64,000 bases of DNA from assembly GCA_963700635.1 (NCBI GenBank), contig CAVOYH010000003.1:256001-320000 (forward strand). Reading direction: 5' to 3'. Every line of letters starts with the position of its first letter. Within the stretch, counting starts at the first letter, position 1. Both the position numbers and the translations under genes were made by a program. The DNA is from an uncultured Bacteroidota bacterium (GTDB lineage: Bacteria > Bacteroidota > Ignavibacteria > UBA10030 > UBA6906). Shown here piece after piece: positions 7,167-58,937 of this stretch. The notes under the pieces were generated by a model. The model saw only the letters and a list, made by a program, of their open reading frames with translations. It made no database searches and had not been told where the DNA came from.

Positions 7167-8582
7167 TCAGACACTCGTGCGGTAAGTACGCTGTTCGGGC
7201 CTGATGCCGAGTTGTTCCATTCGATAACGGAGTTTTGACCTGGTGAGCCCCAGGACTTTTGCCGCCTGCACCTGATTCCCGCCCACGATATCCAGTGTTT
7301 TGAGAATAAGGTCCTTCATGACCTCGCTCATCCGGATTCCCTGGGAGGGGATCTCCAGCATGAAGGACTTGCCATTTCCTGACATCGAAGGGTTGGTCGT
7401 GCCGGCATTCCGCAGGAAGCTGAAGTGATCAACCTGCAGTGCGGGCACATTGTTGAGCAGCACAACCCGTTCCAGAGCGTTCCTGAGCTCTCGCACATTC
7501 CCTTTCCAGCCCAGCTGTTCAAGGAACTGCAGCGCTTCCGGAGCGATAGAAGGAACAGGCCGGTTGAACCTGCGGCAGAATTCGGCAAGAAATGCTTTGG
7601 CGAGCTCGCTCACGTCTTCCCGGCGATTCCGCAACGGTGGGATACGCACCGAGGCGACATTCAGACGATAGAAGAGATCTTCGCGGAAGCGACCTTCTTC
7701 GACTTCGCGGGCCAGTTCCTTGTTTGATGCCGCGATAACACGCACATCCACACTGATTTCCTTGGTGCCACCCAAGCGGTAAAAACGTTTTTCTTCGAGT
7801 ACACGGAGCAGCTTGACCTGCATGTCCAGCGAGAGTTCGCGGATTTCATCAAGCAGGATTGTGCCACCGTCCGCCAGCTCAAATTTTCCCTGTTTCATTT
7901 TTTCGGTTGCGCCCGTGAATGCACCCTTCTCGTATCCGAAGAATTCACTCTCTGCAAGCTCCTTCGGGATGGCGCCGCAATTGAGGGTGATAAACGGTTT
8001 ATCGCGGCGTGAACTTTGCTGGTGAATAAACCGCGCCATGAGTTCCTTTCCCGTTCCGCTTTCCCCTTCGATCAGCACCGTCGTGTTCTCACCAAGAGCC
8101 AGCTTCTCCGCTGTTTCCAGCGCACGCCGTAATGCCGGACTCCTGCCGATGATCCCTGATCGTGACCGTTCTTCTTCAAGCTCTTCCTGGAGCAATTTGA
8201 CCTGTGTCTGCAGCCGAGCATGGTTGAGATTCTTCTCGATCAGAACGCCGAGGTGATTAAGGTCAAATGGCTTGACGACAAAATCAGCGGCACCTTCCTT
8301 CATTGCGCGAACGGCAAGGGAGACGTCCGAATGCGCGGTCATCATCAATACCGGCGTCGTCCATCCTTCAAGCCGCATGCGGTTCAGAAGCTGAATCCCG
8401 TTAACTTCTCCCATGTAAATATCCAGGAGGACAAGATCCGGTTTCTGGTCGTCCAGAAACTGGAAGAAGTCCTCCCCGCGGCTGCAAAGGGCTACCGTAT
8501 AGCCGAGCTCGCCCAGGATCTTTTTGAGTGTGGTTCCCAGGATGGGCTCATCATCAGCCACCAGTATCCGTGCCTTCGCCAT
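7167..8582 (-). CDS. Sigma54-dependent NtrC-family activator (REC-AAA+-Fis HTH)
   Basis: REC domain; GESGTGKE Walker A; GAFTGA loop; [11 protein letters not shown]; [10 protein letters not shown]; C-terminal [15 protein letters not shown]. Confidence 0.95.
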
Positions 8583-8597
8583 GGCGAATTCCTTTTC

Positions 8598-10214
8598 TTA
8601 GGTGTGAATTGGTAACAAAAGTCGAACGATGGTTCCCCCTCCCTCGGCAGGGTCAATACGGATGTCACCCTTGTGTTTCTCCACGATCTGTTTTGAGATC
8701 GAGAGGCCGAGTCCCGTTCCACCTGATTTTGTCGTGTAAAATTGTTCAAAGAGGTGCTTGCGCTGCTCTGCAGACAGTCCCGGACCGTGATCCCGCACGC
8801 CCAGCTCCACAAATGGCTGGTCCAGGTGATCCGGATGCACGAGGGCAGTCGACAGCTCCACAGTCCCTCCGTCGGGAGACGCATCAATAGCATTCTGTAC
8901 AATATTCAAAACGACCTGCTGAATTTGTTTGGCATCGATACGGATAGAAGGAAGCACCTCAGCGTAGGAAGTCACAAAACGCACGTCCTGTTGCTGGACG
9001 GAAAGTTTGATAAATCCCAGGACCTGCGGAACAAGATCATTGAGCTGTTGTTCTTTCAAGACGGGGGGTGTCACGCGGGCGAGATTGAGCGTATTCTCGA
9101 TGACCGCTTCAATGCGCTTGGTACCCTCCAGCGCGTCGCGCAACGAATCGCACAATTCGGGTTGCTGCTGCGTCTTGAAGATCATGTACTGAAGGTTCAG
9201 AGCTATGGCGGAAAGCGGGTTTCGAATTTCGTGCGCTATGCCTGCCGCCAGCCGCCCCATCAGCGTCATCTTCTCCGCCTGAAGCAATTGATCCCGCATT
9301 TTCTTTTGTTCGCTGATGTCCCGGACATATAACAACACGCGTGTGTCCTGCGGACGGGTCACCGGTCCGACACCGATGTCTACCTGGACGGAGGTCCCGT
9401 CTTTGCGTGTAATCATGGTTTCGCCCGATGCAAACCGGGCGGTGTCAAGCATAGTTGCCGTAAAGTCCCCACCGGCTACCGGGAGATGAGACATCGCCAG
9501 CAATTCTTCACGGGCAAATCCAAGGAGTTCGATGCCTGCCCGATTCACATCGAGCACCTTCCCTGTTTCGCGATCCAGCACAAAAATTGTTATACTCGCA
9601 TGGTCGAACAACGTCCGGTACCTGTCTTCCGAAGCCTGGATCTCCCGGTTCTTCCGGATGAGCGTGTCCGCATACATCTCCAGCTCGGCCATTTTCTCTT
9701 CCAGTTTCTTGATCACAATGGCACGGTGTTTTTCAAGAAACTCCTGATCGTCAATGGGCCCCAGCACCGGGGCGGGCTCTTCAGGTTTGCGGCCGTACTG
9801 CTGTTGCGCCAGTTCGTTGATGGCTTGGACCAGCGCGCCAAGCCCGGCGTACTTTACGACATAGCGGTCGACCCCGATGCTGCGGGCAAATTCCTGGTCC
9901 GTCGCATCGACGTAGTTGCCGGTGTAGATGATAAAGGGAACAGAGGCATAGGAAGAGAGCGTCCGGATTTCCTTACAGAGCTGAAATCCGTCCATTTTGG
10001 GCATCATGGCGTCCGCCACAATCATGTGGACTTGTTCCTGGTTCGCCAGCGCTAGGGCTTCGACGCCATTTTTCGCCATGAGAGGAGAATAACCGTTCTC
10101 TGAAAGGACATCTTCCAGCAACTCTAGATTCTCCTGCACATCATCGACCAGCAGTATTCTCAGTCGATGGGCGTCACCGATCTGTGGACTACTTATCTCA
10201 GACGGATTCATCAT
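8598..10214 (-). CDS. REC-PAS histidine kinase
   Basis: ILLVDDVQEN...DAMMPKMDG REC; PAS; GIAHEIRNPL H-box; FYTTKSGGTGLGL. Start uncertain (ORF extends to 10283). Confidence 0.9.
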   Translation of the reverse strand: MMNPSEISSPQIGDAHRLRILLVDDVQENLELLEDVLSENGYSPLMAKNGVEALALANQEQVHMIVADAMMPKMDGFQLCKEIRTLSSYASVPFIIYTGNYVDATDQEFARSIGVDRYVVKYAGLGALVQAINELAQQQYGRKPEEPAPVLGPIDDQEFLEKHRAIVIKKLEEKMAELEMYADTLIRKNREIQASEDRYRTLFDHASITIFVLDRETGKVLDVNRAGIELLGFAREELLAMSHLPVAGGDFTATMLDTARFASGETMITRKDGTSVQVDIGVGPVTRPQDTRVLLYVRDISEQKKMRDQLLQAEKMTLMGRLAAGIAHEIRNPLSAIALNLQYMIFKTQQQPELCDSLRDALEGTKRIEAVIENTLNLARVTPPVLKEQQLNDLVPQVLGFIKLSVQQQDVRFVTSYAEVLPSIRIDAKQIQQVVLNIVQNAIDASPDGGTVELSTALVHPDHLDQPFVELGVRDHGPGLSAEQRKHLFEQFYTTKSGGTGLGLSISKQIVEKHKGDIRIDPAEGGGTIVRLLLPIHT

Positions 10215-10374
10215 GGACACATCACTTTGGATAGTGATTGTACGCAAAGGGGGAATCGTAACCAAGGTACCAATATTGGCCACGTGGTCGCAATACGCAA
10301 ATCTACGTATTTCCGGGGGAGAATTCTACGTAGATGGCCAATTATCCCCAGGGCGGGGTGCCGTGTGGCCGGAT

Positions 10375-11067
10375 CTACCGGGGAAGGATTACTATGCCGT
10401 TCTTAATGGCATACGCCACTAATCCGGCACTTTCGTGGATATCCAGCTTTTTCATGATATTGTGACAATGGGTGTCAACCGTACGGGGGCTAATATGAAG
10501 CAGATCAGCGGCCTCCTGATGTGTCTTTCCTTCAGCAATAAGCTGGAGGATTTCCCGTTCACGGGAGGTCAGGCGGCTATCCGGAAGCTGCCGGGCAGTC
10601 GACTCAGGTCCGGGAGTCTCTCCGGACTGCATAAATGAATCGAGGAGAATTCTGGATACGGAGGGGCTGAAAAAGGCATGGCCGCCATGGACCGCCCTGA
10701 TGGCGGCGTAGAGTTCCTCGGCCGAGCTGTTTTTCAGCAGATAACCGTTCGCTCCGCTCCGCACCACCTGCAGAACATAGTCTTCGTTGTCATGGGCGGA
10801 CAGAACGAGGACTTTCACGTGGGGTGACTCTTTTTTGATCCGGAGCGTAGCTTCAAGGCCGTTGAGTCCCGGCATGCTGATGTCCATAAGCACAACATCC
10901 GGGTCAAGTTTCAGGGTCAGATCAACAGCAACACGGCCATCCGATGCCTCCCCGATGACCTCGAGTCCTTCCGCCAGCGAGAGCAAGGAAACAAGGCCAC
11001 GGCGCACGATGGTGTGGTCATCGGCAACGAGGACGCCGATTGGTTGGGATTTCATGGGGCGAGACAC
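10375..11067 (-). CDS. NarL/LuxR-family response regulator
   Basis: VLVADDHTIVRRG REC; LTSREREILQLIAEG...ISPRTVDTH..NIMKKL LuxR HTH; start may be 11055. Confidence 0.95.
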   Translation of the reverse strand: MSRPMKSQPIGVLVADDHTIVRRGLVSLLSLAEGLEVIGEASDGRVAVDLTLKLDPDVVLMDISMPGLNGLEATLRIKKESPHVKVLVLSAHDNEDYVLQVVRSGANGYLLKNSSAEELYAAIRAVHGGHAFFSPSVSRILLDSFMQSGETPGPESTARQLPDSRLTSREREILQLIAEGKTHQEAADLLHISPRTVDTHCHNIMKKLDIHESAGLVAYAIKNGIVILPR

Positions 11068-11143: not shown

Positions 11144-11440
11144 TTACTTGTCAGAAGGTTGTTTCTTGATGTCCTTCAGAATCGCGTCTACAACTTTTTC
11201 CGTGACATCCCTCTGGAAATAGAATCCCTTCCGGATCTTCTCCCGGATGGCGCCAAAGCGGGTGGACTGATTGGCTTCGTAAAGAGCCCGTGCTTCATCC
11301 GATACTTCTACGCGATCGGATTTTTCTTCTGAATCCTTTTCGCCCTTTGCCCGGGGGATGGATTTCTGGGCGGGCTGCGGTTTATTCCCCTTTATCGGAT
11401 CCACAGATCCCGAGGAAGTAATAATCTCCTGTATCGCCAT
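11144..11440 (-). CDS. FlgM-like anti-sigma28 factor (paralog A)
   Basis: 98 aa; low-complexity N-terminus; DRVEVSDEA...IREKIRKGFY...VVDAIL matches the FlgM C-terminal pattern; flagellin context. Confidence 0.6.
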   Translation of the reverse strand: MAIQEIITSSGSVDPIKGNKPQPAQKSIPRAKGEKDSEEKSDRVEVSDEARALYEANQSTRFGAIREKIRKGFYFQRDVTEKVVDAILKDIKKQPSDK

Positions 11441-11507: not shown

Positions 11508-11918
11508 TTATGTGTGTTTCCCTGCTTTCAGCGCCTGTGTCATGGCCTTTTCCTCATACTGCATCAGCTTCCGGGTCTCCTTCAAGGCCTGATAGAACTT
11601 TCCGTTATAGATCGCTTCGCTGATGGTCTTAAAAAGTTCTGTCGTGCTGGGTGCGGCATGGATAATATCCCGTGCGAGATCCCAGTAATCCTTTTGATAC
11701 TTGGGAAGATTCTCGCCATCAATATACATCAGCTGGATGACAAAGTACACTTTTTTGCAGGGAGTATCCGCCTTCGTTTCGCTCAAAATTTCTTTTTCGC
11801 GGAGGAGGGGGACCTTATTCTCCACCATCAATTCAATGGTTTTGCCGGTGGCGTTTCGTAGTACCGCGCCACCGGCAATAACCCGTTCATTGACTTTTAG
11901 TGACAACTTCAGAGCCAT
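11508..11918 (-). CDS. flbT: Flagellin translation regulator FlbT
   Basis: MALKLSLKVNERVIAGGAVLRN...LLREKEIL...ADTPCKKVYFVIQLMYID...FYQALKETRKL; true start is the ATG at 11918 inside the longer ORF. Confidence 0.9.
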   Translation of the reverse strand: MALKLSLKVNERVIAGGAVLRNATGKTIELMVENKVPLLREKEILSETKADTPCKKVYFVIQLMYIDGENLPKYQKDYWDLARDIIHAAPSTTELFKTISEAIYNGKFYQALKETRKLMQYEEKAMTQALKAGKHT

Positions 11919-11922
11919 AAAG

Positions 11923-12723
11923 CTATCCCAAGAGTTGCTCCATCTGTGCTGCGCCACCATGGGCAAGGCCCACAGACTGCACGGCAATCTCGTGCCGGAC
12001 CTCACCGCTTCGTGCTTGCGCCCCCGCTTCATCCATACCCCGGTCGTACGTAGAACCGGGGATGTCGAAGGTTTGTTCCCGGAGACGTTGCCGACGCGCC
12101 TGCAACGTGACCTCGGCATCATCCAGGTGTTGAATGGTCTGTGTGATGTCCTGGTCGGTGACCTCTTCAGGTGGCAGGAGCTCAGGCAGACGGAGCCCCA
12201 GGGGACCCGTTTGCACATCCTCTTTCCGTACCGTCCTGGTCAGTCCATTCGGTTCAATCGTAAAGGTCCAGTCGTCTCCTGCCCCCTGCTGCGCCTTTTT
12301 CGTCCGAACCGCGAGCGTCCCTGCTTCTACTTCGGGAGGCACGGTAAGTCTGTCAATCATAACACGAAGGGCTGCATACCCCCGCAAACGTCGAACGCGC
12401 TCCTCACTGCCTGGAGGGAAGGGGGGATAACTTTTGGTCACCACTTCCAGCTCCTTTTTCATCGCGTGGATCGTCGTGCCGACGGCCTTCATGGCCTGGT
12501 CCATCGTCCTGATGGTCGCCGCGACGGCGTTCGAACGGTCGTGCAGCGCCGCAAGGCGTTGAAACTCCGGCGCTGTTCGTGAGATGCTTGAATGACCAAC
12601 CGAACTTTTTTCGACCTCCTGATGTGTTCCGGATCCCGTCTGGGAGGCAAGTCTGTCAAGCCGCTCCTGGGACCGCCCCAGACCCCTCGGGCCTTGATCG
12701 AATCCTATGTTGAGTATTGACAT
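11923..12723 (-). CDS. Highly diverged flagellin-like protein
   Basis: Helical segments and C-terminus align by eye with the adjacent flagellins (GMDEAGAQ...VRHEI...L vs DMNEEGAN...TRQSL...L); carries a YPPFPPGSEER insertion; GAGG RBS. Confidence 0.6.
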   Translation of the reverse strand: MSILNIGFDQGPRGLGRSQERLDRLASQTGSGTHQEVEKSSVGHSSISRTAPEFQRLAALHDRSNAVAATIRTMDQAMKAVGTTIHAMKKELEVVTKSYPPFPPGSEERVRRLRGYAALRVMIDRLTVPPEVEAGTLAVRTKKAQQGAGDDWTFTIEPNGLTRTVRKEDVQTGPLGLRLPELLPPEEVTDQDITQTIQHLDDAEVTLQARRQRLREQTFDIPGSTYDRGMDEAGAQARSGEVRHEIAVQSVGLAHGGAAQMEQLLG

Positions 12724-12799: not shown

Positions 12800-13645
12800 C
12801 TAGAACAGACGCAGGACTGACTGCGCGTTCTGGGCTGACAGGCTCAAAGCTGTTGTTCCCAGAGACTGCCGGGTCTGCAGCATGAGCATATTTGCACCTT
12901 CCTCGTTCATGTCGGCATCCGTCAACGAACTGGCGCCGGCTTTGAGCGTTGCAATCATCTGATCCGCCCAATCCGCGCGGGTCTGGATAATGCTCAGGCT
13001 GGACGACAGGGACGATGATTGCACCCGGAGTGTGTCGAGTGCTGAGGACAGCTGCGTCAGGGCTGAGTTCACAGATGCCGTGCCGTTGGTTGCATTGTCC
13101 CAGGAGTCTGTGATACCGCCTGTAGCCTGGCCGACGATACCGATCGTCAAGCCGGTTGCAGTCGCGCTGAATCCTTCAATGCTCAGCGAGCTCGCACCAC
13201 TTTCGTTGAACTTCACCGTCATGGTGTTCCCGACCAGCAGGTTCGTACCACGATAGCCGGAGTCGCTGGCCATGGTGTTGATCTGGCTGATCACGGCATT
13301 GTACTGTGTCACGTACTGCGCGCGCGCCGTCGCATCGCTTGTGGCGAGAGCAGACTGCGCAATACCTTTTGCCGATTCGATCAGGGTGTTGAGGGATTCG
13401 ATACCACTGCTGGCGGTTTTCACCGTCTGGATCGCTTCACTCATACTGTCCTTGCGGGCAGAAATGTCATTGGAGCGATTGAGGTGGCCACGTGCAGCGA
13501 AATAGTTGGTCGGGCTGTCGAGTGCACTGTTGACCTTCTTGCCGGTCGAAAGCCGATCCTGCGTACGGTTCAACAGGCTGACAGTATTCTGCAGGCTCAG
13601 CAAATTGGCCCGCATCGCGCCCGTCAACGAGATTTCTTGTGCCAT
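12800..13645 (-). CDS. fliC: Flagellin 1 (short, 281 aa)
   Basis: MRANLLSLQ...RLSTGKKVNSALDSPTNYF N-terminus; ADMNEEGANMLMLQTRQSL...SVLRLF C-terminus. Confidence 0.95.
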   Translation of the reverse strand: MAQEISLTGAMRANLLSLQNTVSLLNRTQDRLSTGKKVNSALDSPTNYFAARGHLNRSNDISARKDSMSEAIQTVKTASSGIESLNTLIESAKGIAQSALATSDATARAQYVTQYNAVISQINTMASDSGYRGTNLLVGNTMTVKFNESGASSLSIEGFSATATGLTIGIVGQATGGITDSWDNATNGTASVNSALTQLSSALDTLRVQSSSLSSSLSIIQTRADWADQMIATLKAGASSLTDADMNEEGANMLMLQTRQSLGTTALSLSAQNAQSVLRLF

Positions 13646-13817: not shown

Positions 13818-14096
13818 TCACCAACCTGTGGCAGACTCTATTTCCCGCGCAACACTATCGATGATCTGTTCCGTAATGTCCGGGTCCAGATAATACCCCC
13901 GCCGAACCCTTTCCCGGATCACATCCAACCTCTGGAAGTTCCCCCCAGATAAGAGCGCTTGTGCCTCACGGGACAGATGTATATGATCCGCGTCACCCTT
14001 CTCACCCTCCATCGTTCCGCCCTGTGCCCCCGCCGGCCGATCATTTATTGATCGTTCGGCCGAACCTGCATCTCTGAAAATGGCTTCGATGGTCAT
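13818..14096 (-). CDS. FlgM-like anti-sigma28 factor (paralog B)
   Basis: DHIHLSREAQ...RLDVIRERVRRGYY...ITEQIIDSV, colinear with paralog A; AGGAG RBS. Confidence 0.55.
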   Translation of the reverse strand: MTIEAIFRDAGSAERSINDRPAGAQGGTMEGEKGDADHIHLSREAQALLSGGNFQRLDVIRERVRRGYYLDPDITEQIIDSVAREIESATGW

Positions 14097-14122: not shown

Positions 14123-14500
14123 CTACTGTGCCGAGCCTTTCAGGCCGGCCGCAATGTTTGTGTTGATGTTGATCAGTATGTCAAGTTTTTCCGGAGCAGG
14201 GAACGCCAGGGTGTCAAAAATTCGGCGGTCGATGAACGCGCTCAGCCGGAGGACGTTTTCCTTGATCGTTTGCGGTAATGGATTCTTTTCCTCGAGTAAC
14301 GCCACCTGAAAGAACGTCCACAACCGCTGATTGTACCGTAACGCCTTCTCCAGACTCCGGTCCCGGTCGGGGGCGGCCCAGTGCGTTTGCACATGTTTCA
14401 TCAGCGATGCAGCCTTCATCAACACCGCCGCTTCTGCCTCCCTGTCACCGAGTGCCGCCATCTGGTTCCGTCCGTACACTTCTGCCTGCGTTGCGTGCAT
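14123..14500 (-). CDS. flaF: Flagellar regulator FlaF
   Basis: REAEAAVLMKAA...ALRYNQRLWTFF...NPLP...LSAFI...LININTNIAAGL is the FlaF signature. Confidence 0.9.
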   Translation of the reverse strand: MHATQAEVYGRNQMAALGDREAEAAVLMKAASLMKHVQTHWAAPDRDRSLEKALRYNQRLWTFFQVALLEEKNPLPQTIKENVLRLSAFIDRRIFDTLAFPAPEKLDILININTNIAAGLKGSAQ

Positions 14501-14603: not shown

Positions 14604-15449
14604 TTAGAAGAGCCGCAGGACCGACTGGGCATTCTGGGCTGACAGACTCAACGCTGTGGTTCCCAGAGACTGCCGGGTTTGCAGCATGAGCATATTTGCA
14701 CCTTCTTCGTTCATGTCCGCTTCTGTTAACGCGTTCGCACCGTCTTTAAGGGTCGAGATCATCTGATCCGCCCATTCTGCGCGGGTCTGAACGATGCTGA
14801 GACTGGACGAGAGTGCGGATGACTGCACCCTGAGTGTGTCAAGCGCAGACGAGAGCTGTGTCATGGCCGAGTTGATTGACTCCGTGCCGTCGGTTGCATC
14901 GGACCAGGCCGCAGCGATGCCGCCCGTGGCCTGCCCGATAATCCCGATCATCAAGCCCGTTGCGGTGGCTTTGAAGCCGTCGATGCTCAGCGAGCTCGCA
15001 CCGTCCTCGTTGAACTTCACGCTGAGCGTGTTGCCCAGAAGCAGGTTCGTGCCACGATAACCGGAATCGCTGGCCATGGTGTTAATCTGACTGATCACCG
15101 CATTGTACTGCGTCACGTATTGTGCGCGTGCAGTCCCGTCATTGGTGGCGAGAGCTGCCTGTGCAATACCTTTGGCCGACTCGATCAGGGTATTAATCGA
15201 TTCGATGCCGGTGCTGGCGGTTTTTACCGTCTGTATCGCTTCACCCATGCTGTCTTTCCTGGCCGCAATGTCGCTAGCACGGTTCATGTGCCCCCGTGCC
15301 GCGAAATAGTTAGTCGGGCTATCCAGCGCACTGTTGACTTTTTTGCCGGTCGAAAGCCGATCCTGCGTACGATTCAGCAAGCTGACCGTATTCTGCAGAC
15401 TCAGCAGATTGGCCCGCATCGCGGAAGTGAGTGAGATTTCTTGTGCCAC
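14604..15449 (-). CDS. fliC: Flagellin 2 (short, 281 aa; GTG start)
   Basis: Close paralog of 12800-13645, same length and terminal motifs. Confidence 0.95.
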   Translation of the reverse strand: MAQEISLTSAMRANLLSLQNTVSLLNRTQDRLSTGKKVNSALDSPTNYFAARGHMNRASDIAARKDSMGEAIQTVKTASTGIESINTLIESAKGIAQAALATNDGTARAQYVTQYNAVISQINTMASDSGYRGTNLLLGNTLSVKFNEDGASSLSIDGFKATATGLMIGIIGQATGGIAAAWSDATDGTESINSAMTQLSSALDTLRVQSSALSSSLSIVQTRAEWADQMISTLKDGANALTEADMNEEGANMLMLQTRQSLGTTALSLSAQNAQSVLRLF

Positions 15450-15549: not shown

Positions 15550-15576
15550 TTATCGGCAGATTGGAGGAGGAGTTTA
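15550..15576 (-). promoter_or_regulatory. Sigma28 (FliA) promoter of flagellin 2
   Basis: Minus strand TAAA-CTCCTCCTCCAATCT-GCCGATAA, exact consensus with 15-nt spacer. Confidence 0.9.
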
Positions 15577-15639: not shown

Positions 15640-17073
15640 TTATGCCTGGAGCCACTGCCGGATCCTGCCAATAACGGCACCCCAATCTCCAGCCCGTTCC
15701 TGCCGGAAAAGCTGCATCGTCGGGTACCAGGGGGTCCTGTCGGTACCCAACATCCAACGCCAGTCGGGTGCAAACGGCACCAGCATCAGTACCGGTCTGC
15801 CCATCGCACCGGCAACATGCGCCACCACGGTGTCGACAGAAATTACAAGATCCATGTGCGCGATCACCGCCGCGGTGTCTTCAACATCACGTAACGCGGG
15901 ACCGAGATCCTCCACCACGATCCCCGAAGGCAAAACCACCCGCGCATCTCCCTTCTCCCCCTTCTGCAAACTGAAAAACCTCACCCCTTCGGTCCCTGCA
16001 AGGGCACTCAGATACTCCGGATGTAACGACCTCTTTGCATCATTCCTGTGGCCGGGGTTCCCAGCCCATACAAGCCCGATACGTTTGTCCGCCGGTCCGC
16101 CCGTACACCTCTCCCGCCAAAAATCTATCCGCGAACGATGAGGATAAAGATACGGTATCACGGAAGGGACGGTCTCCAGGGTGGTGCCAAACACGCCCGG
16201 GAGAGAAAGCAACGGCGATTCAAAATCAGCAGGCGGGATACTCTCTCCACGGCTATAGACTTCGCTTACTCCGTCAATGCCGCGGAACAGAGAAGCGAGT
16301 TCCTCGTGACATTCAACAACGACCCTTCCCCCGCAGGCAGCAACAAGAGGCACATAGCGGATAAACTGTACCGCGTCTCCCAATCCCTGTTCGGCGTAAA
16401 GAAGAATCCGCCTGTTGTCCGGGATTTCCCCTCCCGCCCAGCAACGCGACGGGTCAGTGCGACGGTAGGGAGCTGCAGACATCTTCTGCCAGCGCCATTC
16501 GTATTCTTTCCACCCGTCGGCGTAGTTACCCTGCATCAACAGGGCATGCGAGAGAAGCCAGTGGGCATCAACACACCCCGGATCTTCATGCACAACGGCA
16601 CGCAGGAGAGCTGTTGCCTCCTCCGGTTGCGCCTGCTCGATGAGCATGTAGGCAAGGTTGAGCGCCGCCGGACTATACCGTCTGTCCCGCTGAAGTGCAG
16701 TCAGATAGGAAACGCGCGCCCGGCCGTGATCTCCGCTCTCTGCCCATGCAAGGGCGAGATTATTATGGACTTCGGGCAACTCCGTTCCAAGCGCAAGCGC
16801 TTTCTGGTAAAGGCGCACCGATGCGGCCGGATTGCCTGCTGCCCGCACGGCATTCCCGAGATTGTAGTACACAGCGCCTGCCGACGGAACAAGGCGTAGA
16901 GTTTCCTCAAACACCCGGATCGCCTCGTCATACACACCGGCTTCATGCAGCGCAAGCCCCAGACTGTTCAGCATGTCGGGATTGGACGGTGACCGGCGGA
17001 CCGCCTCCCGGGCCCGGAGAAGCACAGTCGTCGCATCGGCACCGCCAGACGGAAGTTTCCCGCTCGCACTCAT
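15640..17073 (-). CDS. TPR + GT-B (GT9-like) glycosyltransferase, single module
   Basis: TPRs; EQGLGDAVQFIRY; GLVWAGNP; DLVISVDTVVAHVAGAMG; PDWRW..PWYP; ATG at 17073 overlaps the upstream stop (ATGA). Confidence 0.85.
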   Translation of the reverse strand: MSASGKLPSGGADATTVLLRAREAVRRSPSNPDMLNSLGLALHEAGVYDEAIRVFEETLRLVPSAGAVYYNLGNAVRAAGNPAASVRLYQKALALGTELPEVHNNLALAWAESGDHGRARVSYLTALQRDRRYSPAALNLAYMLIEQAQPEEATALLRAVVHEDPGCVDAHWLLSHALLMQGNYADGWKEYEWRWQKMSAAPYRRTDPSRCWAGGEIPDNRRILLYAEQGLGDAVQFIRYVPLVAACGGRVVVECHEELASLFRGIDGVSEVYSRGESIPPADFESPLLSLPGVFGTTLETVPSVIPYLYPHRSRIDFWRERCTGGPADKRIGLVWAGNPGHRNDAKRSLHPEYLSALAGTEGVRFFSLQKGEKGDARVVLPSGIVVEDLGPALRDVEDTAAVIAHMDLVISVDTVVAHVAGAMGRPVLMLVPFAPDWRWMLGTDRTPWYPTMQLFRQERAGDWGAVIGRIRQWLQA

Positions 17074-19946
17074 CGCTTCTCCCCCTTCCGGCTCGCCAAC
17101 GTCCGGAGCGATTCTGCAATCTGTGACAAAACCCCGGACCATTCCTGCGCCCGTGCCTGCCGGAAGAGCCGCATGCCGGGATACCAGGGGCTCCCGTCAC
17201 GTTCGCGCATCCACCGCCAGTCGGGATCACGCGGTAGCATTACCCACACCGGCGTCCCCAGAGCACCGGCGACATGTGCGACCGCGGTGTCAATGGTAAT
17301 CACAAGATCCAGAACCGAAACGGCGGCTGCAGTATCACCAAAGTCGTGGATATAGGGCGAGAGATCCCGCGGCCTGATCTCCGGCGGCACGACGTCAAGA
17401 TCATGCACAGCGTCACCAATCTGGAGACTCCACATGCTTGTGCCGGGGATCCGGAACAACGGCATGAGATTCACAAGAGGACAGGATCGACTCCGCAGAG
17501 ACTTCAGATGTTGTGTCCCGGACCATACCACTCCTACAGAGAGTCCTTCACTCTGCAGTCGATTCCGCCATTGAATCACATCCCCGGTATCCGGCGCCAG
17601 ATACGGAATCTCTGCGGGAATAGTCTGCAGTGTGGTTTTGCAGATTCGTGGAAGACTCATCAACGGCACATGAACGTCAAAATGCGGCAGCGGATCCCCG
17701 TAGGCGACCACGCTCCTGATCCCATCAAGATTCCTGAAGAGCCGGACAAGTTCGCGCTGGCACTCCACCACGACGATTGCGCCGGTCTGCAGCACCACAT
17801 GCACGTACCGAACAAATTGCAGCGCATCACCAAAACCCTGCTCGGCATGAACCAGGATCGTCTTTCCGTGAAGAGTCTCCCCGTTCCAGCAGGGTTGCCG
17901 GAATGGGCGCACCGGACTGGTAAAGTCTGTCCGCCGCCATCGCCATTCATATTCCTCCCAGCCCCGGATGTAATCCCCTTCCTGAAGAAGAAGTTGGGCC
18001 ATATTCCAGTGTGGTTCGGGGAAGTCAGGGCTCCATCTTATGGCGGAATCAAATGCACGCCGTGCACCCGCAAAATCTCCGAGCGCCCTCAGAACATTGC
18101 CCATATTGTTGTGGGCATTGGCCAGGGTTGGGTCAAGCTGGAGAGCACGTTGCAGGACATCCCGGGCACGGGTAAGAAGGTTGTGCTCGTACAACGCTGA
18201 CCCAAGGTTGCTTGCCGTCGCAGCACATCGGTGATCCAGCTCTACAGCTCGTTCAAATGCAGCGATGGCTTCGGGAACATTGCCTTCCTGTTGCAGACAC
18301 ACTCCCAGATTATTCCAGGCCGCCGGGAGTTCGGGCCGGCGATCCAGAATGCGGCGATACACCGTAATCGCGTGTAAGCGTAGACCTGCCTGGCACAATG
18401 CATCGCCATAAGCAAGCAACGCACCGTAATCCTCCGACTGCGGGGGTGCCGCAGTCCCGGTGATCCCTGCGCCGGGCCAACTCCATGAGAAACGGAGAGG
18501 TTTGAGTGGCTGACTCGGAACCGGAGACGGAAAAGCCCCGCCCGTGGCCTCCTGGAGTTCGGACCGGACCTGATCAAAAACTTTTTCCCACCCTCCGCGC
18601 TGTTGCTGACGGAAAAGACGCATCGAGGGGTACCAGGGCGAATCGGAACGTCTGAGCATCCACCGCCAATCCGGTGCAAAAGGAAGAAGAAGCCACACCG
18701 GTTTGCCAAGGGCACCGGCAAGATGGGCCACGGCCGTGTCCACCGTAATCACAAGGTCAAGCGTGCTGACGAATGCCGCAGTGGCCGCAAAATCCGGCAG
18801 GTTGTCCGTCAGGTCAATAAGGCGCCGATCATGGTGTAGTCCGTCCCTCGTCTCACCTCCGGTCTGGAGGGTGTACCACACGGTCCGCGGGACAGTCAGC
18901 AGACGCTCGAAGAGTGCCGGCGGACATGAACGGTTATGGTCGTTTTTGTGATGCGGATTTCCCGCCCAGACGACGCCGATGCGCATTCCCTCCCCAGTTC
19001 CCTGGAGACGCGCCCTCCACTCCGCCACTTCAGAAGGATCCGGGAAAAGATACGGAACGGCGGCTCCGTACGAACGTTCATCCGTGATGCCCGCCAGATG
19101 TGGAATACTCAGAAGCGGAGACCATGTATCATACGCCTGCTGAACTTCGCCTCGCGAAAATACCGAGGCCACGCCGGGCACCGTCCGGATGAGTCTGCAG
19201 AGTTCTCCGGAACATTCGACAAGAACGCGGGCACCACGCTCCTGCAGGTGCCGGGCAAATCGGACGAACTGCAGTGTGTCGCCAAGACCCTGTTCCGCCG
19301 AAAGCAGTATACGTCGCCCGTTGAGCGTACTCCCATCCCAGCGTGGCACAACATCGGCGCGCAGAGGATTTGCCCTGTCGCTGGTGTGAAAACGCCATTC
19401 AAATTCTTTCCATCCGTCCGCGTGCATTCCTTTGAGAAGCGAAACCAATCCACGATTGTAGTGCAGATCCGGATAGCCGCTGTTGAGTGCAAGCCCGACG
19501 GACGCCACCGCGTGTGCTTCGTCCAGATGCCCGAGTGCCTGCAATGTAACGGTCAGGTTGTTGTAAATACGCGTATCATCAGGCCGGAGTCGAAGGGCGG
19601 TTCGATAACAGCGCTCTGCTTCGTCCGGCTCTTCCAGAGCAGCACATGTATTCCCGAGAACGTACCACGCATCTCCGTCTGAAGGTAGAAGCTTCACGAC
19701 ACGGCGGAGCACTTCTGCCGCTGCCTTGAAGGAGCCGAGGTCTTTGAGCGCTTTCCCCAGGTTATAGTGCGCATCGGCGTAGGCAGGATCAATCGCAACT
19801 GCCTGTTCGAACAATCCGAGACTCTCCCGAATCTCCCCGCGTTGAACCGCATTCATGCCGAGCGTATTCAGGGCTTCCGCTTTGGACGAACGTGGTGCCA
19901 TCCGGCGGATTCCGCGGGTATCGGCAATATCAGTCCTCGTGGACAT
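17070..19946 (-). CDS. Tandem double TPR + GT-B glycosyltransferase
   Basis: Two complete TPR-EQG(L/F)GD...DLVIT(V/I)DT...PDWRW modules; start trimmed to MSTRTD (the longer ORF overlaps the upstream gene). Confidence 0.85.
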   Translation of the reverse strand: MSTRTDIADTRGIRRMAPRSSKAEALNTLGMNAVQRGEIRESLGLFEQAVAIDPAYADAHYNLGKALKDLGSFKAAAEVLRRVVKLLPSDGDAWYVLGNTCAALEEPDEAERCYRTALRLRPDDTRIYNNLTVTLQALGHLDEAHAVASVGLALNSGYPDLHYNRGLVSLLKGMHADGWKEFEWRFHTSDRANPLRADVVPRWDGSTLNGRRILLSAEQGLGDTLQFVRFARHLQERGARVLVECSGELCRLIRTVPGVASVFSRGEVQQAYDTWSPLLSIPHLAGITDERSYGAAVPYLFPDPSEVAEWRARLQGTGEGMRIGVVWAGNPHHKNDHNRSCPPALFERLLTVPRTVWYTLQTGGETRDGLHHDRRLIDLTDNLPDFAATAAFVSTLDLVITVDTAVAHLAGALGKPVWLLLPFAPDWRWMLRRSDSPWYPSMRLFRQQQRGGWEKVFDQVRSELQEATGGAFPSPVPSQPLKPLRFSWSWPGAGITGTAAPPQSEDYGALLAYGDALCQAGLRLHAITVYRRILDRRPELPAAWNNLGVCLQQEGNVPEAIAAFERAVELDHRCAATASNLGSALYEHNLLTRARDVLQRALQLDPTLANAHNNMGNVLRALGDFAGARRAFDSAIRWSPDFPEPHWNMAQLLLQEGDYIRGWEEYEWRWRRTDFTSPVRPFRQPCWNGETLHGKTILVHAEQGFGDALQFVRYVHVVLQTGAIVVVECQRELVRLFRNLDGIRSVVAYGDPLPHFDVHVPLMSLPRICKTTLQTIPAEIPYLAPDTGDVIQWRNRLQSEGLSVGVVWSGTQHLKSLRSRSCPLVNLMPLFRIPGTSMWSLQIGDAVHDLDVVPPEIRPRDLSPYIHDFGDTAAAVSVLDLVITIDTAVAHVAGALGTPVWVMLPRDPDWRWMRERDGSPWYPGMRLFRQARAQEWSGVLSQIAESLRTLASRKGEKR

Positions 19947-19989
19947 AAGCCCCAACTCTTTCTCTGACTCTACAGTACATCTCTCGGCC

Positions 19990-22900
19990 TCACTTCCCTT
20001 TCGCCCGAAATGACAGACGGTTTGCAAGCATATCCGTACACTCTTCGACGACATCCTTCCATACGCCACGTTGACGCTGACGCAGCAGCCGCATGGCCGG
20101 GTACCGGTCAGACGAGTTTTCCCGTTCTCCCCAGCGCCAATCGTGAGGGTTCGATAACAGAAGCCAGACTTCCTTCCCCATCCCACCTGCAAGGTGCGCC
20201 ACCGCTGTATCTACGGTGATGACAAGGTCCAGACAGTTGATGAGAGCAGCGGTTTCATGAAAATCAACCAGCTCGGAGGTCCAGTCCATCCCAGCTGCGG
20301 CAAATGGTGAGGCTCCAAATTCCTGTCCCGCCTCCCCTTTTTGCAGACTCACATACAGAACGTCCCTGTGGCGGGTGAGCGGCACAAGTTCGTCAAGAGG
20401 GACGGAACGATAACGACCTTCAGGATTTGTCGGGCTGCCTGACCAGACGATTCCGATCCGGAAATGAGTACCATACCCGTCCAAACGCCGCCCCCACTTT
20501 GTGCAGCCACCGTGATCTGCAGAGAGATATGGCACCGGGTGATCCAGCTCTGCAGTCTCACCGGCGACAAGGGGGACGCTCAACAAGGGGATGTGTACGT
20601 CATGCGGGGGGAGGGGATCATCTTTTCCGATGACGTGGTCAACACCCGGCACGCGGCGCACCAGCCGGTGCAAGGGTGTTGGACATTCTACGATAACCCG
20701 GCCGCCCGATCCTGTAACGTGCGCAAGATAACGGAGAAAGAACAACGTGTCCCCATATCCCTGTTCCGCCCATACAAGAACGGTCCTACCGCGCAGGGGT
20801 CCACCGTCCCACCGGGGCGACTTGTATCGATGAAGGAGTTTCTGAAATTCGGGTTTCCGCCACCTCCATTCAAATTCCCTCCACCCGCGTGAGGAATTAC
20901 CCTGATGCAGAAGAGCATGGGCAAGGTTCCAGTGCGCTTCAACACAGTCCGGATTTGCCCCGAGCGCACGCGTATACTCTACGATGGCCCCGTCAATACG
21001 ACCCCGCCGGTAGCAGACCAGTCCGATGTTGTTATGGGTCTTCTCAGGAGAAGCCCCGAGCACCAGAGCTTTCCGGAAATAGTCTTCGGCTTCTTCGAGC
21101 CGCCAGACGTCACACAGGCAGGATCCCAGATTGTAGTGGCCATCGGCATACTCCGGGTCACAACTCAATGCCGCACGAAACGCCTGTTCCGCGTCGGCTG
21201 TATTGTGGCATTGCCGGAGAAGGTTTCCAAGGTTGTTCCACCCTTCCGCATGTCGCGGGTGGGACTCGAGCAGCCGCCGGACGTGGGATAGTCCTTTTTC
21301 CAGGTACCCCATCTGGCGGCAGACAACGGACAACAAGTAGAGCGCATCGGAGTTATCGGGATCGTACCGGAGGATCTGCTCGTATTGTTCCAATGCGCGC
21401 GGGAGATCCCCGTGGCGATGGATGCTGATTGCTTCCATGATCAACTGTTCCGAATTCCCCGTGCTGAATGCGGGCGTTCTACTCCGAAGGACATCGCCAA
21501 GGACATGTTCCACTCTTTGTACCACACCATTCCAATCACCGGGCTCTCTCTGACGGAAGAGCCGCATGTCGGGGTACCAGGGCGAGTCCTCACGTTCAAG
21601 CATCCATCGCCAGTCGGGAGCAAACGGGAGGAGAACCCACACCGGTTTGCCCAACGCACCTGCCAGGTGAGCAACCATGGTATCAACGGTGATCACAAGA
21701 TCAAGCTGGTTGATGAGGCCCGCTGTCGCCAGAACATCCCCACACTCCCCGCTATGGTCGATGAACCGGGGACGGCCTTCTGCACACTGTTCGATACTCT
21801 TCCGGTCGATCTGCAGGTTATAGAAAACCGCTCCCTCCAGCGCCAGAATCGGATCGAGCAGCCTGGACTCGAGGGATCGCCTCCGGTCATTGTCGTGGGT
21901 TCGACTTCCTGACCACGCCAATCCGATTCGGAGACCGGCGGGATCACCGGCCAACCGTTCTCTCCAGAACGTAGTGGTCGCCTCGGGGACGGAAAGGTAC
22001 GGCACGCAGGCTGGCACGGTGCAGGGAGTCGTGCCGGCGAAATGGGGGAGACTGAGCAGTGCACACCGCACATCATGGTGTGGGAATGGTGCTCCGCGGG
22101 CAATCACCCCCTTCACTCCGGGCATCGCCTCGAATAACCGTACCAGCACAGGCGGTGCCTCTACATAGACCTTTGCCCCCAGGGCTGTCAGCAGAGGAAC
22201 ATACCGGATAAATTGTATCGCATCACCCAGTCCCTGCTCACATTGAACAAGTATCGTCCTCCCGTCTGGTTGCGTCCCATCCCACAGGGGTGTATCAAAT
22301 ACCCTTTGTTCCGGAGGAGACGCCAGAAGCGAACGCCACTCATATTCCCGCCAGCCCGCCACCCAGTCACCCTGGAGAAGATGAACGAACGAGAGCCCCC
22401 AATGAGCTTCGGCGGATTGTGGATCAATCGAGAGTGCCCTCCGGTAGAGTTTCTCTGCCTGATCCAGCATGCCCTGTTCCCGGTGGAGTTTTGCCAGATT
22501 GGTTATCGGACTGACGTATTCTGGTTTGATCTCGCGCGCAGTCTCGTACGCAAACATCGCTGATGTGAGCATATCCATTTCGGCGAGGACATTGCCAAGG
22601 CTGTTCTGTGCTTCAGCGAACGCCGGTCGGAGTGTTATGGCCTTTCGCAGAGCCTGCAGCGCATCCTCCCGCAGTCCCATAGCGCGCAGGGCGTTGCCGA
22701 GATTGCAGTAGGCATCAGCGGAGCCGGAGTCGTGGTTCAACGCAGTCCGGCATGCCTGCGCCCCCTCCTGATACTTCCCTGTCTGAACCAGGGCCATCCC
22801 GAGATTGCTCCAGACGCCCGGTTGCGCATGCTCGATTCTGAGGGAAGTGTGGAAGCACTCGATCGCATCAGCCCACCGGCGGGATTCCATCAGGAGGAGT

Positions 22901-23133
22901 CCGAGATTTGCGAGTGCTGCCGGGTATTCCGGGGCGTTGTGCAGAGCTTTCCGGATATACTGTTCTGCCCTGGTGAAATCGCGCCTCTGGAACGCGATCA
23001 CACCCATGAGATGGAGAGCTTCAGCGTGGTCGGGATCGAGGTCAAGGATCTCCGCATACAACGCTCCTGCTTCAGCCAGATCACCGCTGCGGTGAATCCT
23101 GAGCGCGCGCTCTATGGAGGAGCCGGTGGTCAT
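19990..23133 (-). CDS. Tandem double TPR + GT-B glycosyltransferase
   Basis: Two TPR-GT modules (EQGLGD, EQGYGD; DWRW twice); ATGA overlap with the upstream methyltransferase. Confidence 0.88.
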   Translation of the reverse strand: MTTGSSIERALRIHRSGDLAEAGALYAEILDLDPDHAEALHLMGVIAFQRRDFTRAEQYIRKALHNAPEYPAALANLGLLLMESRRWADAIECFHTSLRIEHAQPGVWSNLGMALVQTGKYQEGAQACRTALNHDSGSADAYCNLGNALRAMGLREDALQALRKAITLRPAFAEAQNSLGNVLAEMDMLTSAMFAYETAREIKPEYVSPITNLAKLHREQGMLDQAEKLYRRALSIDPQSAEAHWGLSFVHLLQGDWVAGWREYEWRSLLASPPEQRVFDTPLWDGTQPDGRTILVQCEQGLGDAIQFIRYVPLLTALGAKVYVEAPPVLVRLFEAMPGVKGVIARGAPFPHHDVRCALLSLPHFAGTTPCTVPACVPYLSVPEATTTFWRERLAGDPAGLRIGLAWSGSRTHDNDRRRSLESRLLDPILALEGAVFYNLQIDRKSIEQCAEGRPRFIDHSGECGDVLATAGLINQLDLVITVDTMVAHLAGALGKPVWVLLPFAPDWRWMLEREDSPWYPDMRLFRQREPGDWNGVVQRVEHVLGDVLRSRTPAFSTGNSEQLIMEAISIHRHGDLPRALEQYEQILRYDPDNSDALYLLSVVCRQMGYLEKGLSHVRRLLESHPRHAEGWNNLGNLLRQCHNTADAEQAFRAALSCDPEYADGHYNLGSCLCDVWRLEEAEDYFRKALVLGASPEKTHNNIGLVCYRRGRIDGAIVEYTRALGANPDCVEAHWNLAHALLHQGNSSRGWREFEWRWRKPEFQKLLHRYKSPRWDGGPLRGRTVLVWAEQGYGDTLFFLRYLAHVTGSGGRVIVECPTPLHRLVRRVPGVDHVIGKDDPLPPHDVHIPLLSVPLVAGETAELDHPVPYLSADHGGCTKWGRRLDGYGTHFRIGIVWSGSPTNPEGRYRSVPLDELVPLTRHRDVLYVSLQKGEAGQEFGASPFAAAGMDWTSELVDFHETAALINCLDLVITVDTAVAHLAGGMGKEVWLLLSNPHDWRWGERENSSDRYPAMRLLRQRQRGVWKDVVEECTDMLANRLSFRAKGK

Positions 23134-57578: not shown

Positions 57579-58871
57579 TTACTTCATCAGCGTCATCCGC
57601 CTGGTGGCGGTAAGTCCGGCGTGGTCGATCCGGTAGAAATACACGCCGCTGGGAAGCCCCCCGGCGTTCCAGAGAACCTGATGCTGCCCGGCGGGAAGCA
57701 CCTCGTTCACCAGGGTGGCAACCTCTTCGCCGATCGTGTTATAGACCCGCAGCGTCACCTGACCGTCAGCTGGCAGCACAAAGGAGATACGTGTCGACGG
57801 ATTAAACGGATTCGGATAGTTCTGTCCCAGAGAGAACTGCGCGGGCATCGTCACTGGATCATCTTCCCGTACACTTGTCTCATCGGCGTTGTACGCAAAG
57901 ATCGGGCAGGCGGGACGGATCCCATGGTCGCGCAGACCACGCTCGACAAATCGCATCGTCGCAGCAAGCTCCTGCGCGTAGTCCGGTTCGACAAGGGCCA
58001 CTGCGTCAGACAGAAAACCGGCCACCTGATCCGCCGTGACGGTCACATCGAAGCCCGGGATCGGGACATTCGCTTCGATAAGCATCTCCGCCACCGGTGC
58101 TGTCTGTGCGGCCAGAATTGCGATTGTTTGGTTTTCTGGCCGTGAGAAAGCCAACCCGTACTGGGTGATGAGCTTCTTGTATTCCTTTTCTGTCCCGACA
58201 ATCAGAGCGCTCGCATCTGCGACCGGTATTCCGGCAAACGCAGCGAGGTCCTCCGCATAGGCCGCTGCCAGCAGGTGCGGGACCTCGGCCGGACGCGTCT
58301 GCGCCGCAAGCATCATGCGCAGTCCAACACCACGGTCCAGGTTCCTCCGGACCAGCAGATCCACTGCCGTCTCTGAGAGATCGTGTCCCATTTCCGGTGC
58401 GAGGAGACCCGCCACGTAATCTGCGTCCGGCGAGGGAAGACCGCCAGCGTGCAGAATGTCCACAAGGACTGGCATGAGCCGGGGGACGAGCGCCGCCCCT
58501 TTGGCGATGGCATATCCTTCGCCGGGAAACATGAACGAAGCATGATGTGCAGTGAAATCGGCGCCCCAGGTATCATTGTGTGTCAGAAACCCCAAGCCGA
58601 CGGACTTCAGACTCGGTCTCCAGGCCATCCGGTACACCGGCATGAAATTGTGATGTGTCGCGTCATACAGGAACTGTCCGTTCGCATCGAACATAGTGTT
58701 AAACACATCCGGTAGGACCGCTCCATACATTTCGTTCCTATTCAACGGTCCGAATTTCACGCCGAGTTCCCTGGCGAGGTAGACGTGGGTCGCATTCCCC
58801 CAGCTGAATGCACCCTGCACCGCCACGAGAATCAAGAGTGCAGCCACGAACAACTTCTTTGCAGTGTCCAT
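57579..58871 (-). CDS. T9SS C-terminal-domain protein with Zn-dependent phospholipase C/S1-P1-like N-terminal domain
   Basis: Signal peptide ending AFS-W; WGNATH, GAVLPD, GFLTH..ADFTAH, HDLSE; CTD FSLGQNYPNPFNPST...GVYFYRI...MTLMK. Confidence 0.75.
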   Translation of the reverse strand: MDTAKKLFVAALLILVAVQGAFSWGNATHVYLARELGVKFGPLNRNEMYGAVLPDVFNTMFDANGQFLYDATHHNFMPVYRMAWRPSLKSVGLGFLTHNDTWGADFTAHHASFMFPGEGYAIAKGAALVPRLMPVLVDILHAGGLPSPDADYVAGLLAPEMGHDLSETAVDLLVRRNLDRGVGLRMMLAAQTRPAEVPHLLAAAYAEDLAAFAGIPVADASALIVGTEKEYKKLITQYGLAFSRPENQTIAILAAQTAPVAEMLIEANVPIPGFDVTVTADQVAGFLSDAVALVEPDYAQELAATMRFVERGLRDHGIRPACPIFAYNADETSVREDDPVTMPAQFSLGQNYPNPFNPSTRISFVLPADGQVTLRVYNTIGEEVATLVNEVLPAGQHQVLWNAGGLPSGVYFYRIDHAGLTATRRMTLMK

Positions 58872-58937
58872 AAGATCCCTCCTTCGATGGATAGTGGTTG
58901 TTGGACAGCACAAAGATACTCGTGCACAGCGTCCTCA

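Follow-up and report, generated by a model that had tools for sequence, protein, structure and literature searches.

What is the role of a gene that separates a flagellin gene from flbT and whose product belongs to no named protein family? This question is raised by a stretch of 64,000 nucleotides (nt), hereafter ‘the window’, from an uncultured Bacteroidota bacterium (assembly GCA_963700635.1, contig CAVOYH010000003.1). On its minus strand, an open reading frame (ORF) of 266 amino acids (aa) with an ATG start, to which we give the working name gene X, ends at a TAG codon (11925-11923), and the ATG of flbT follows 4 nt on (11918-11916), a spacing that had been given in the original prediction for this DNA and that can be read from the sequence. 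The sequence directly 5' of the gene X start is GAGGTGAGAA. We report here that gene X descends from flagellin, a conclusion well supported by sequence comparison, and that its product, rather than serving as a filament subunit, probably contributes to flagellin control in a way so far unrecognised.

Searches of Pfam and NCBIfam assigned the gene X protein to no family. It matched neither Flagellin_N (PF00669), even at E <= 1, nor Flagellin_C (PF00700); FliD_N (PF02465) and FliD_C (PF07195) were likewise without a match, as were TIGR02550 and the FlgL equivalogs in NCBIfam. The gene and its immediate companions are the following.

11923..12723, minus strand: gene X, 266-aa flagellin-derived protein of an unnamed family
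12397..12435, minus strand: hallmark codons K97-S-Y-P-P-F-P-P-G-S-E-E-R109, turn between the ND1a-like and ND1b-like helices
12738..12780, minus strand: G+C-rich stem-loop with no U tract, between flagellin B and gene X (spacer of 76 nt)
11508..11918, minus strand: flbT, 136 aa (Pfam FlbT PF07378, 4.6e-38; NCBIfam FlbT, 7e-34)
12800..13645, minus strand: flagellin B, a 281-aa flagellin of the short D0-D1 type, immediately upstream of gene X (Flagellin_N 3.8e-11, Flagellin_C 1.4e-6)
14604..15449, minus strand: flagellin A, 281 aa (Flagellin_N 1e-10, Flagellin_C 3.2e-4)
14123..14500, minus strand: flaF, 125 aa (Pfam FlaF 4.3e-28; NCBIfam FlaF 6.1e-31, above cut-off)

Descent of gene X from flagellin

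The likeness of the gene X protein to flagellin is invisible to an ordinary search, as BLASTP against flagellin B returned a best E of 1.3, which is not significant. It emerges from profile comparisons. Indeed, when a profile built from 26 homologues of the gene X protein (A1) was compared with the PDB sequences, the top five matches were five Caulobacter flagellins (E from 1.2e-4 to 3.3e-3), colinear with the profile across both the N- and C-terminal parts. Taken singly, four of these 26 members matched Flagellin_N (best E 3.7e-5) and none matched Flagellin_C. The A1 hidden Markov model (HMM) also matched, from end to end, the true flagellins that adjoin X in related loci, with a best E of 2.4e-11 in what is a small database of locus ORFs.

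A larger alignment of the family (A2, 69 rows) was compared by hhalign with an alignment of 61 flagellin rows; six loci with frame-shifted-looking genes (L009, L040, L041, L043, L049 and L052) and one in which the gene runs off the contig end (L059) were left out of A2. The two alignments matched with a probability of 97.8% (E 7.6e-13) over 236 columns, positions 13-264 of X lying on positions 16-280 of flagellin at an identity of approximately 16%. Relative to flagellin, the five residues YPPFP are inserted at the turn from the first to the second N-terminal D1 helix, which bears out the proline-rich insertion of the original prediction, and the four blocks that had been aligned there by eye all stand in register. 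Against single sequences from the same genome, the family profile reached a probability of 57% over 215 columns with flagellin B, 27% over 84 N-terminal columns with FlgL, and 0.5% with FlgK.

The best sequence-profile and fold matches of X are the short D0-D1 flagellins (Caulobacter FljK/L/M/N, PDB 6xky, 6xl0, 8uxj, 8uxn and 9cef, and the two flagellins of the window itself), which are of the same length class and have the same order of helices and hairpin. Unlike them, X is without the conserved polymerisation segments at either terminus, carries the five-residue proline-rich insertion and falls in a separate clade. In a quick maximum-likelihood tree of 100 rows, built after dropping eight X rows shorter than 200 aa and, counting from the third, every second flagellin, a single branch (SH-like approximate likelihood ratio test, SH-aLRT, 97) parted 61 X rows from 38 flagellin rows, the gene X family forming one clade apart from the flagellins. 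Three relatives (L010, L013 and L016) still keep the flagellin-like ..STGKKIN..DDP.. in their N-terminal part and ADMNE..A..KS.. in their C-terminal part and, judged by these motifs, bridge flagellin and X. The eroded N-terminal D0 motif described in the original prediction is therefore a trait of the window's clade, and does not extend to these three relatives.

The predicted fold points in the same direction. The better of two AlphaFold2 models of X (predicted local distance difference test, pLDDT, 69.5) has the flagellin D1 order of elements, with helices at residues 51-97, 107-127, 190-219 and 232-264 and a hairpin at 152-166. Foldseek lists for both models were led almost wholly by flagellins and FlgL, with no match at E 1e-3 or better. 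VIA-align superposed the model on flagellin D1 with Z of 10-11.5 and a root mean square deviation of 3.4-3.6 A over approximately 137 residues. However, designed helical bundles score alike, which places the fold score within the chance range for such bundles; the fold is thus consistent with homology and no proof of it. Taken together, the profile-profile alignment, the HMM matches to true flagellins and the D1-like predicted fold provide good support for gene X as an end-to-end homologue of flagellin, belonging to the flagellin superfamily. With two true 281-aa flagellins alongside, it can indeed be regarded as the ‘third flagellin-derived protein’ of this locus.

A family tied to flbT

In a large protein collection, the gene X protein has 58 homologues, and the family profile gathers 757 clusters (at 50% identity) at E <= 1e-3, 595 at 1e-10 and 247 at 1e-30. 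This profile does not flood into the flagellins, so that the gene X family stands as a family of its own. Names given by the source were shown for approximately 20 of the 58 homologues, and these read ‘hypothetical protein’, with one ‘flagellin-like hook-associated protein FlgL’; the nearest Atlas clusters are also without a name. The strings PPFPPGS, YPPFPPG and PPYPPGS were not found in the literature searched, and the best 15 of 3,028 papers listed for FlbT in lineages such as these do not mention FlbT, so that no description of the family or of its synteny was found; subscription journals were outside both searches. As far as these searches reach, the gene X family and its synteny are undescribed.

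The hallmark of the family is K-x-[YF]PP[FY]PxGS-x-x-R with its flanking helices, which takes the form K-x-YPPFPPGS-x-x-R in the window. Across 69 sequences, P100, P101, P103, S106 and R109 are invariant, and K97, P104 and G105 are conserved in at least 90%. Beyond the conserved core, which consists of the ND1a-turn-ND1b hairpin only, members differ in length:
— Forms of 266-283 aa possess all the flagellin-like parts, including the N- and C-terminal D0-like segments.
— Forms of 218-227 aa, at approximately 20 loci mainly from Desulfobacterales and including the complete genome of Desulfosarcina alkanivorans, stop after the CD1-like helix; the gap before flbT in these loci holds no separate C-terminal piece.
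— Forms of 160-180 aa (Thermodesulfovibrionales, Nitrospira) are without the hairpin and CD1.
Overall, the C-terminal D0-like helix is missing in about a third of the family members.

A genome-wide scan yielded 61 loci with gene X, in Ignavibacteriota/Bacteroidota, Nitrospirota, Desulfobacterota, Thiobacillaceae and others. The linkage of homologues to flagellin and flbT, on which the original prediction had staked its case, is found in nearly all of them. In 59 of the 61 loci, X directly follows a flagellin gene of the same strand, and in the other two it stands at a contig end. The gene after X is flbT in 57 loci; in the remaining four, X is followed by the contig end (L028), by flaF (L034) or by a flagellin gene (L059 and L061). 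The typical order is flagellin, strong hairpin, X, flbT and flaF, the last usually after flbT. Counted with our own start-codon calls, the gap between X and flbT does not exceed 15 nt in 37 of 57 loci and is usually 1-5 nt. Other recurrent neighbours are large tetratricopeptide repeat (TPR)/glycosyltransferase proteins (53 of 61 loci), PAS histidine kinases and MotA, and among the conserved neighbours neither a cap-like candidate nor any other conserved unknown gene stood out.

Several loci show peculiarities of their own. L039 holds two X-family copies, one in the order flagellin-X-flbT-flaF on the minus strand and the other in divergent orientation with neither flagellin nor flbT adjoining. 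L064 has two flbT-like genes and L007 two flaF genes in one cluster. In L080 (G298:C1), the FlbT domain occupies residues 168-289 of a 307-aa frame that starts right after a flagellin gene, and this long frame may be either an N-terminal extension or a mere open frame in G+C-rich DNA.

The spacer between flagellin and X is itself a conserved feature. In the window, its 76 nt fold with a minimum free energy of -35.7 kcal/mol (z -4.17), a stability that none of 200 shuffles reached, and a strong hairpin (z below -2, median -4.4, against 100 mononucleotide shuffles each) was found in 55 of the 57 related spacers tested. A simple terminator scan did not call the hairpin after flagellin B because a T run is absent; among the spacer hairpins of L004-L064, some have a U tract and many have none. 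This hairpin could act as a terminator, as an attenuator or by stabilising the mRNA, and would thereby set the ratio of flagellin to X and FlbT.

Within the samples searched, X was found only in FlbT-bearing genomes. In the window's own phylum, FlbT was detected in three of 301 genomes, all from the window's taxonomic family. The Desulfobacterota sample contained FlbT in 22 of 301 genomes, 16 of which had X at E <= 1e-8, mostly abutting flbT. Among 401 Pseudomonadota, 77 were FlbT-positive, and a strong X match was obtained in three of these, each time beside flbT; three weaker matches of the X profile that were checked in FlbT-positive Pseudomonadota (L100, L102) proved to be ordinary flagellins. 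In Caulobacter-like loci, the genes upstream of flbT are unrelated (M13 peptidase, short-chain dehydrogenase/reductase, or no family), and no equivalent of X was found there. Five of the six X-less Desulfobacterota were inspected (L116-L120) and show flagellin-flbT(-flaF) with nothing between. This pattern points to flagellin-flbT-flaF without X as a possible ancestral state, flagellin itself taking the part of X, and suggests that X arose by duplication of that flagellin gene.

Within the window's taxonomic family, two of five relatives are FlbT-positive and have X but no FliD, two are flagellated but FlbT-negative and have FliD but no X, and the fifth, without a flagellin, has neither FlbT nor X. 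Genomes G459 and G595, on the one hand, and G503 and G679, on the other, each carry one of two late-flagellar modules, namely a canonical flagellin with FliD approximately 2 kilobases (kb) downstream, or a short flagellin with X and FlbT and without FliD. This suggests that a whole late-flagellar module is exchanged within one bacterial family.

Candidate functions of the gene X product

Which function would require a flagellin derivative encoded against flbT? The closest known case is that of FljJ in Caulobacter crescentus. According to the excerpts of PMC7591256 on which we draw, FljJ is a flagellin paralogue unable to build a filament alone and the only flagellin bound by FlbT, its secretion lifting the translational repression that FlbT exerts on the other flagellins, with FlaF as a secretion chaperone; the same excerpts state, after Ardissone et al. 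2020, that FljJ shares 49% identity with the structural flagellins and is still built in close to the hook. Compared with FljJ as these excerpts describe it, X is likewise a flagellin paralogue in a flagellin/flaF/flbT neighbourhood and is not thought to build the filament itself, its role with FlbT being our proposal. It is unlike FljJ in its approximately 16% identity to flagellin, its lack of a Pfam flagellin match, its YPPFPPGS turn and its frequently missing C-terminal helix; unlike FljJ, too, it occurs in just three of the 77 FlbT-positive Pseudomonadota sampled.

By this analogy, it is perhaps nearly an even chance that X is a flagellin derivative which does not polymerise and acts together with FlbT, with a predicted binding to FlbT and a predicted export. 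X and flbT would be transcribed from the flagellin promoter by polymerases that read through the hairpin behind the flagellin gene, which would keep the level of X low, and X would be translationally coupled to FlbT. As FljJ does in Caulobacter, X would then bind FlbT as a flagellin-like cofactor. It may have kept an N-terminal export signal, and would leave the cell once the hook-basal body is competent for export; its departure would change the activity of FlbT, or its hold on flagellin mRNA, and so tie flagellin translation to assembly. The sign of this regulation could be either, X acting as a co-repressor or as an anti-repressor. The rigid proline turn may provide the docking surface for FlbT and also spoil the axial D1 contact needed for polymerisation. 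In flagellin, the D1 region corresponding to this turn is the site of axial contacts in the filament, which would explain why X should not polymerise.

The length forms of the family are consistent with such a non-axial role. Axial and cap proteins need their C-terminal D0-like helix for insertion, and the absence of this helix from about a third of the family makes a filament-subunit role unlikely; indeed, this helix, or the hairpin and CD1, is dispensable in many lineages. Flagellin descent, a possible export tail, dispensable polymerisation segments and a gene adjoining flbT would fit a diverged and dedicated version of FljJ.

Several points weigh against this reading. The binding of X to FlbT, its export and its expression are all drawn by analogy, and this analogy is loose, given an identity to flagellin of approximately 16% for X and of 49% for FljJ. 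X is not obligatory either, as 74 of the 77 FlbT-positive Pseudomonadota are without it and six of the 22 FlbT-positive Desulfobacterota have none at E <= 1e-8. The N-terminal 50 residues, in which an export signal would lie, show little conservation, and the confidence of the model is low there. FliS-type chaperones bind the C-terminal helix region of flagellin, so that a FlaF-dependent export is uncertain for the forms of X that lack this helix. A complex prediction of FlbT with X from the family alignments gave a score of 0.00, which speaks neither for nor against this reading.

Among the other explanations, a filament cap seems unlikely. X would here be a cap or polymerisation factor of FlbT/FlaF-type flagella replacing FliD, with its proline-rich D1 tip facing the growing end. 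The absence of fliD from the window, noted in the original prediction, extends to the whole genome (97% complete), in which FliD_N, FliD_C and FliS were not found, and FliD_C is present in just one of 50 X-bearing genomes (the count covers 50 of the 61 loci). The exception, at L065/L066 (G036:C35), is a 1034-aa frame, unusually long for FliD, and could belong to a second flagellar system or to contamination. The alternation of FliD and X across the four flagellated relatives of the window's family, and the lack of any other conserved unknown gene standing out in the 61 loci, also speak for a cap. In Caulobacter, FlaY is said to replace FliD (Kint & Viollier 2023, as cited in PMC13277936 and in 10.1101/2024.09.25.614892), and a table of PMC13277936 lists it as a ‘FliD analog’. 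X resembles FliD and FlaY in this respect by occurring in FliD-less genomes beside flagellin genes, although it matches neither FliD_N nor FliD_C.

However, five X-less FlbT-positive Desulfobacterota (L116-L120) are also without FliD_C and without DUF1217. A lack of FliD is therefore characteristic of FlbT/FlaF-type flagella as a whole and not of X, and the anticorrelation between X and fliD anticipated in the original prediction is real among X-bearing genomes but not specific to them. The loss of the C-terminal D0-like helix in about a third of the members is difficult to reconcile with a cap, and the tight gene coupling of X is to flbT, which encodes a cytoplasmic regulator. For these reasons, and because a true FlgK/FlgL pair exists in the genome, the cap or junction protein proposed in the original prediction has become less likely. 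What caps the flagella of L116-L120 is explained neither by FliD nor by DUF1217 nor by X.

The family DUF1217 (PF06748) calls for comparison in this context. In many FlbT-positive Pseudomonadota (e.g. L083, L087, L088, L090 and L095), a DUF1217 protein of approximately 260-290 aa is encoded right after flbT, in the order flagellin-flaF-flbT-DUF1217. Like X, it is of similar size, adjoins flbT and has no assigned function; unlike X, it lies downstream of flbT and not upstream, and there is no sequence likeness between the two (no match among 26 X members at E <= 0.1; hhalign probability 0.1%). DUF1217 was detected in 50 of the 77 FlbT-positive Pseudomonadota and in none of the three X-bearing genomes among them, in none of 50 X-bearing genomes, and not in the window's own genome, the 50 detections serving as a control; the two are mutually exclusive in the genomes searched. 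By sequence, an identity of X with FliD or DUF1217 was rejected, as no profile matched. In L113, a Caulobacter-like locus, a 917-aa ORF of no Pfam family (8078-10831, plus strand) comes after flbT-flaF, three 274-278-aa flagellins, FlaG and GNAT. It may be a FlaY-type factor, which is a guess; the X profile did not match it, and it was not found in the window's own genome.

Quite unlikely, too, is a minor structural subunit, such as a specialised flagellin, either the first or that of the transition zone, or an additional junction protein near FlgL. Colinearity with flagellin, D0-like segments included, in the 266-283-aa forms would suit such a subunit, as would the FlgL structures that appear among the fold matches of the X model and the FlgL name borne by one homologue. 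X and FlgL (HAP3) do share the flagellin superfamily, but X has no match to TIGR02550, and the genome encodes its true FlgL (424 aa) next to FlgK (480 aa) at another place, G000:C3 ~209-212 kb, on the same contig and approximately 45 kb from gene X. An identity of X with FlgL was therefore rejected. The hhalign score against this FlgL is also much lower than that against flagellin. Moreover, X has no Flagellin_N or Flagellin_C match, its D0-like parts are lost in many lineages, and only the ND1a-turn-ND1b hairpin is conserved throughout, all of which speaks against a structural subunit.

Capping and control could also be combined. X would then be a flagellin-derived terminal piece with which FlbT/FlaF flagella lacking FliD finish or nucleate their filament, the export of this piece resetting FlbT; the rigid YPPFPPGS tip would replace the normal axial D1 contact, and the protein would have evolved from the very subunit that it controls. 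Taken as a whole, we regard this combination as distinctly improbable.

A link with flagellin glycosylation has still less to recommend it and is very doubtful. X would be a flagellin mimic serving as an adaptor or regulator of TPR-glycosyltransferases, its proline turn and invariant Ser acting as TPR ligand or acceptor. The frequency of TPR/glycosyltransferase proteins in the X loci (53 of 61) and the TPR, glycosyltransferase and methyltransferase genes from approximately 15.6 to 38.5 kb in the window would accord with this, as would Caulobacter FlmG, which, in the excerpts of PMC7591256, binds all flagellins through its TPR domain. However, the conserved coupling of X is to flbT, and the glycosyltransferase genes vary in position and strand. 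Lastly, a functionless, decaying flagellin duplicate, as the eroded flagellin motifs and the absence of a Pfam match for the window's protein might suggest, can practically be dismissed in view of the 757 clusters at 50% identity, motif residues invariant across phyla, a conserved position and intact frames in most loci.

Neighbouring genes and wider meaning

Gene X belongs to a late-flagellar block on the minus strand that comprises flagellin A, flaF, a small ORF, flagellin B, gene X, flbT, a weakly FlgM-like ORF and two-component genes. Three further features of this block are the following.

11144..11440, minus strand: small ORF after flbT, 98 aa (TIGR03824 FlgM, E 0.025, below cut-off)
13818..14096, minus strand: small ORF after flaF, 92 aa, no family match, paralogue of the ORF at 11144-11440
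15550..15576, minus strand: exact site TAAA-N15-GCCGATAA, upstream of flagellin A

The pattern TAAA-N15-GCCGATAA, which we take to be the sigma-28 consensus, has this single exact match in the window, against 0.01 expected, and no such site was found in the 76 nt that separate gene X from flagellin B. Homologues of the ORF at 11144-11440 follow flbT or flaF in L004-L011, and those of the ORF at 13818-14096 occupy the same position in L004-L009. Judging by the presence of two paralogous small ORFs, one of them weakly FlgM-like, FlbT/FlaF control would operate here side by side with a FlgM/sigma-28 checkpoint.

Immediately upstream of the flagellin genes, a run of TPR/glycosyltransferase and methyltransferase genes (15640-38548, minus strand) is probably a flagellin glycosylation island. 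It includes TPR genes with GT9-like domains at 15640-17142, 17073-20192 and 19993-23133, as well as GT1, GT2 and methyltransferase genes, and its TPR-plus-glycosyltransferase layout is reminiscent of Caulobacter FlmG as excerpted from PMC7591256. Farther away, the protein encoded at 57582-58913 (minus strand) carries Por_Secre_tail, a C-terminal sorting domain of type IX secretion, which is in keeping with the Bacteroidota/Ignavibacteriota affiliation to which the nearest loci point.

What is known of FlbT/FlaF control of flagellin synthesis comes almost entirely from Caulobacter and a small number of other Alphaproteobacteria, with FljJ as a special flagellin. The gene X family is large, has no Pfam or NCBIfam entry and is tied to flbT in Ignavibacteriota/Bacteroidota, Nitrospirota, Desulfobacterota and Thiobacillaceae; it deserves a name, and the FlgL label given to one member should be dropped. 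These results also sharpen the question of how filaments are capped and assembled in flagella without FliD, FliS and DUF1217. In any case, X now represents a concrete candidate for a FlbT cofactor outside the Alphaproteobacteria, with one motif open to mutation and with cultured carriers in Desulfosarcina alkanivorans PL12 and Geotalea sp. SG265.

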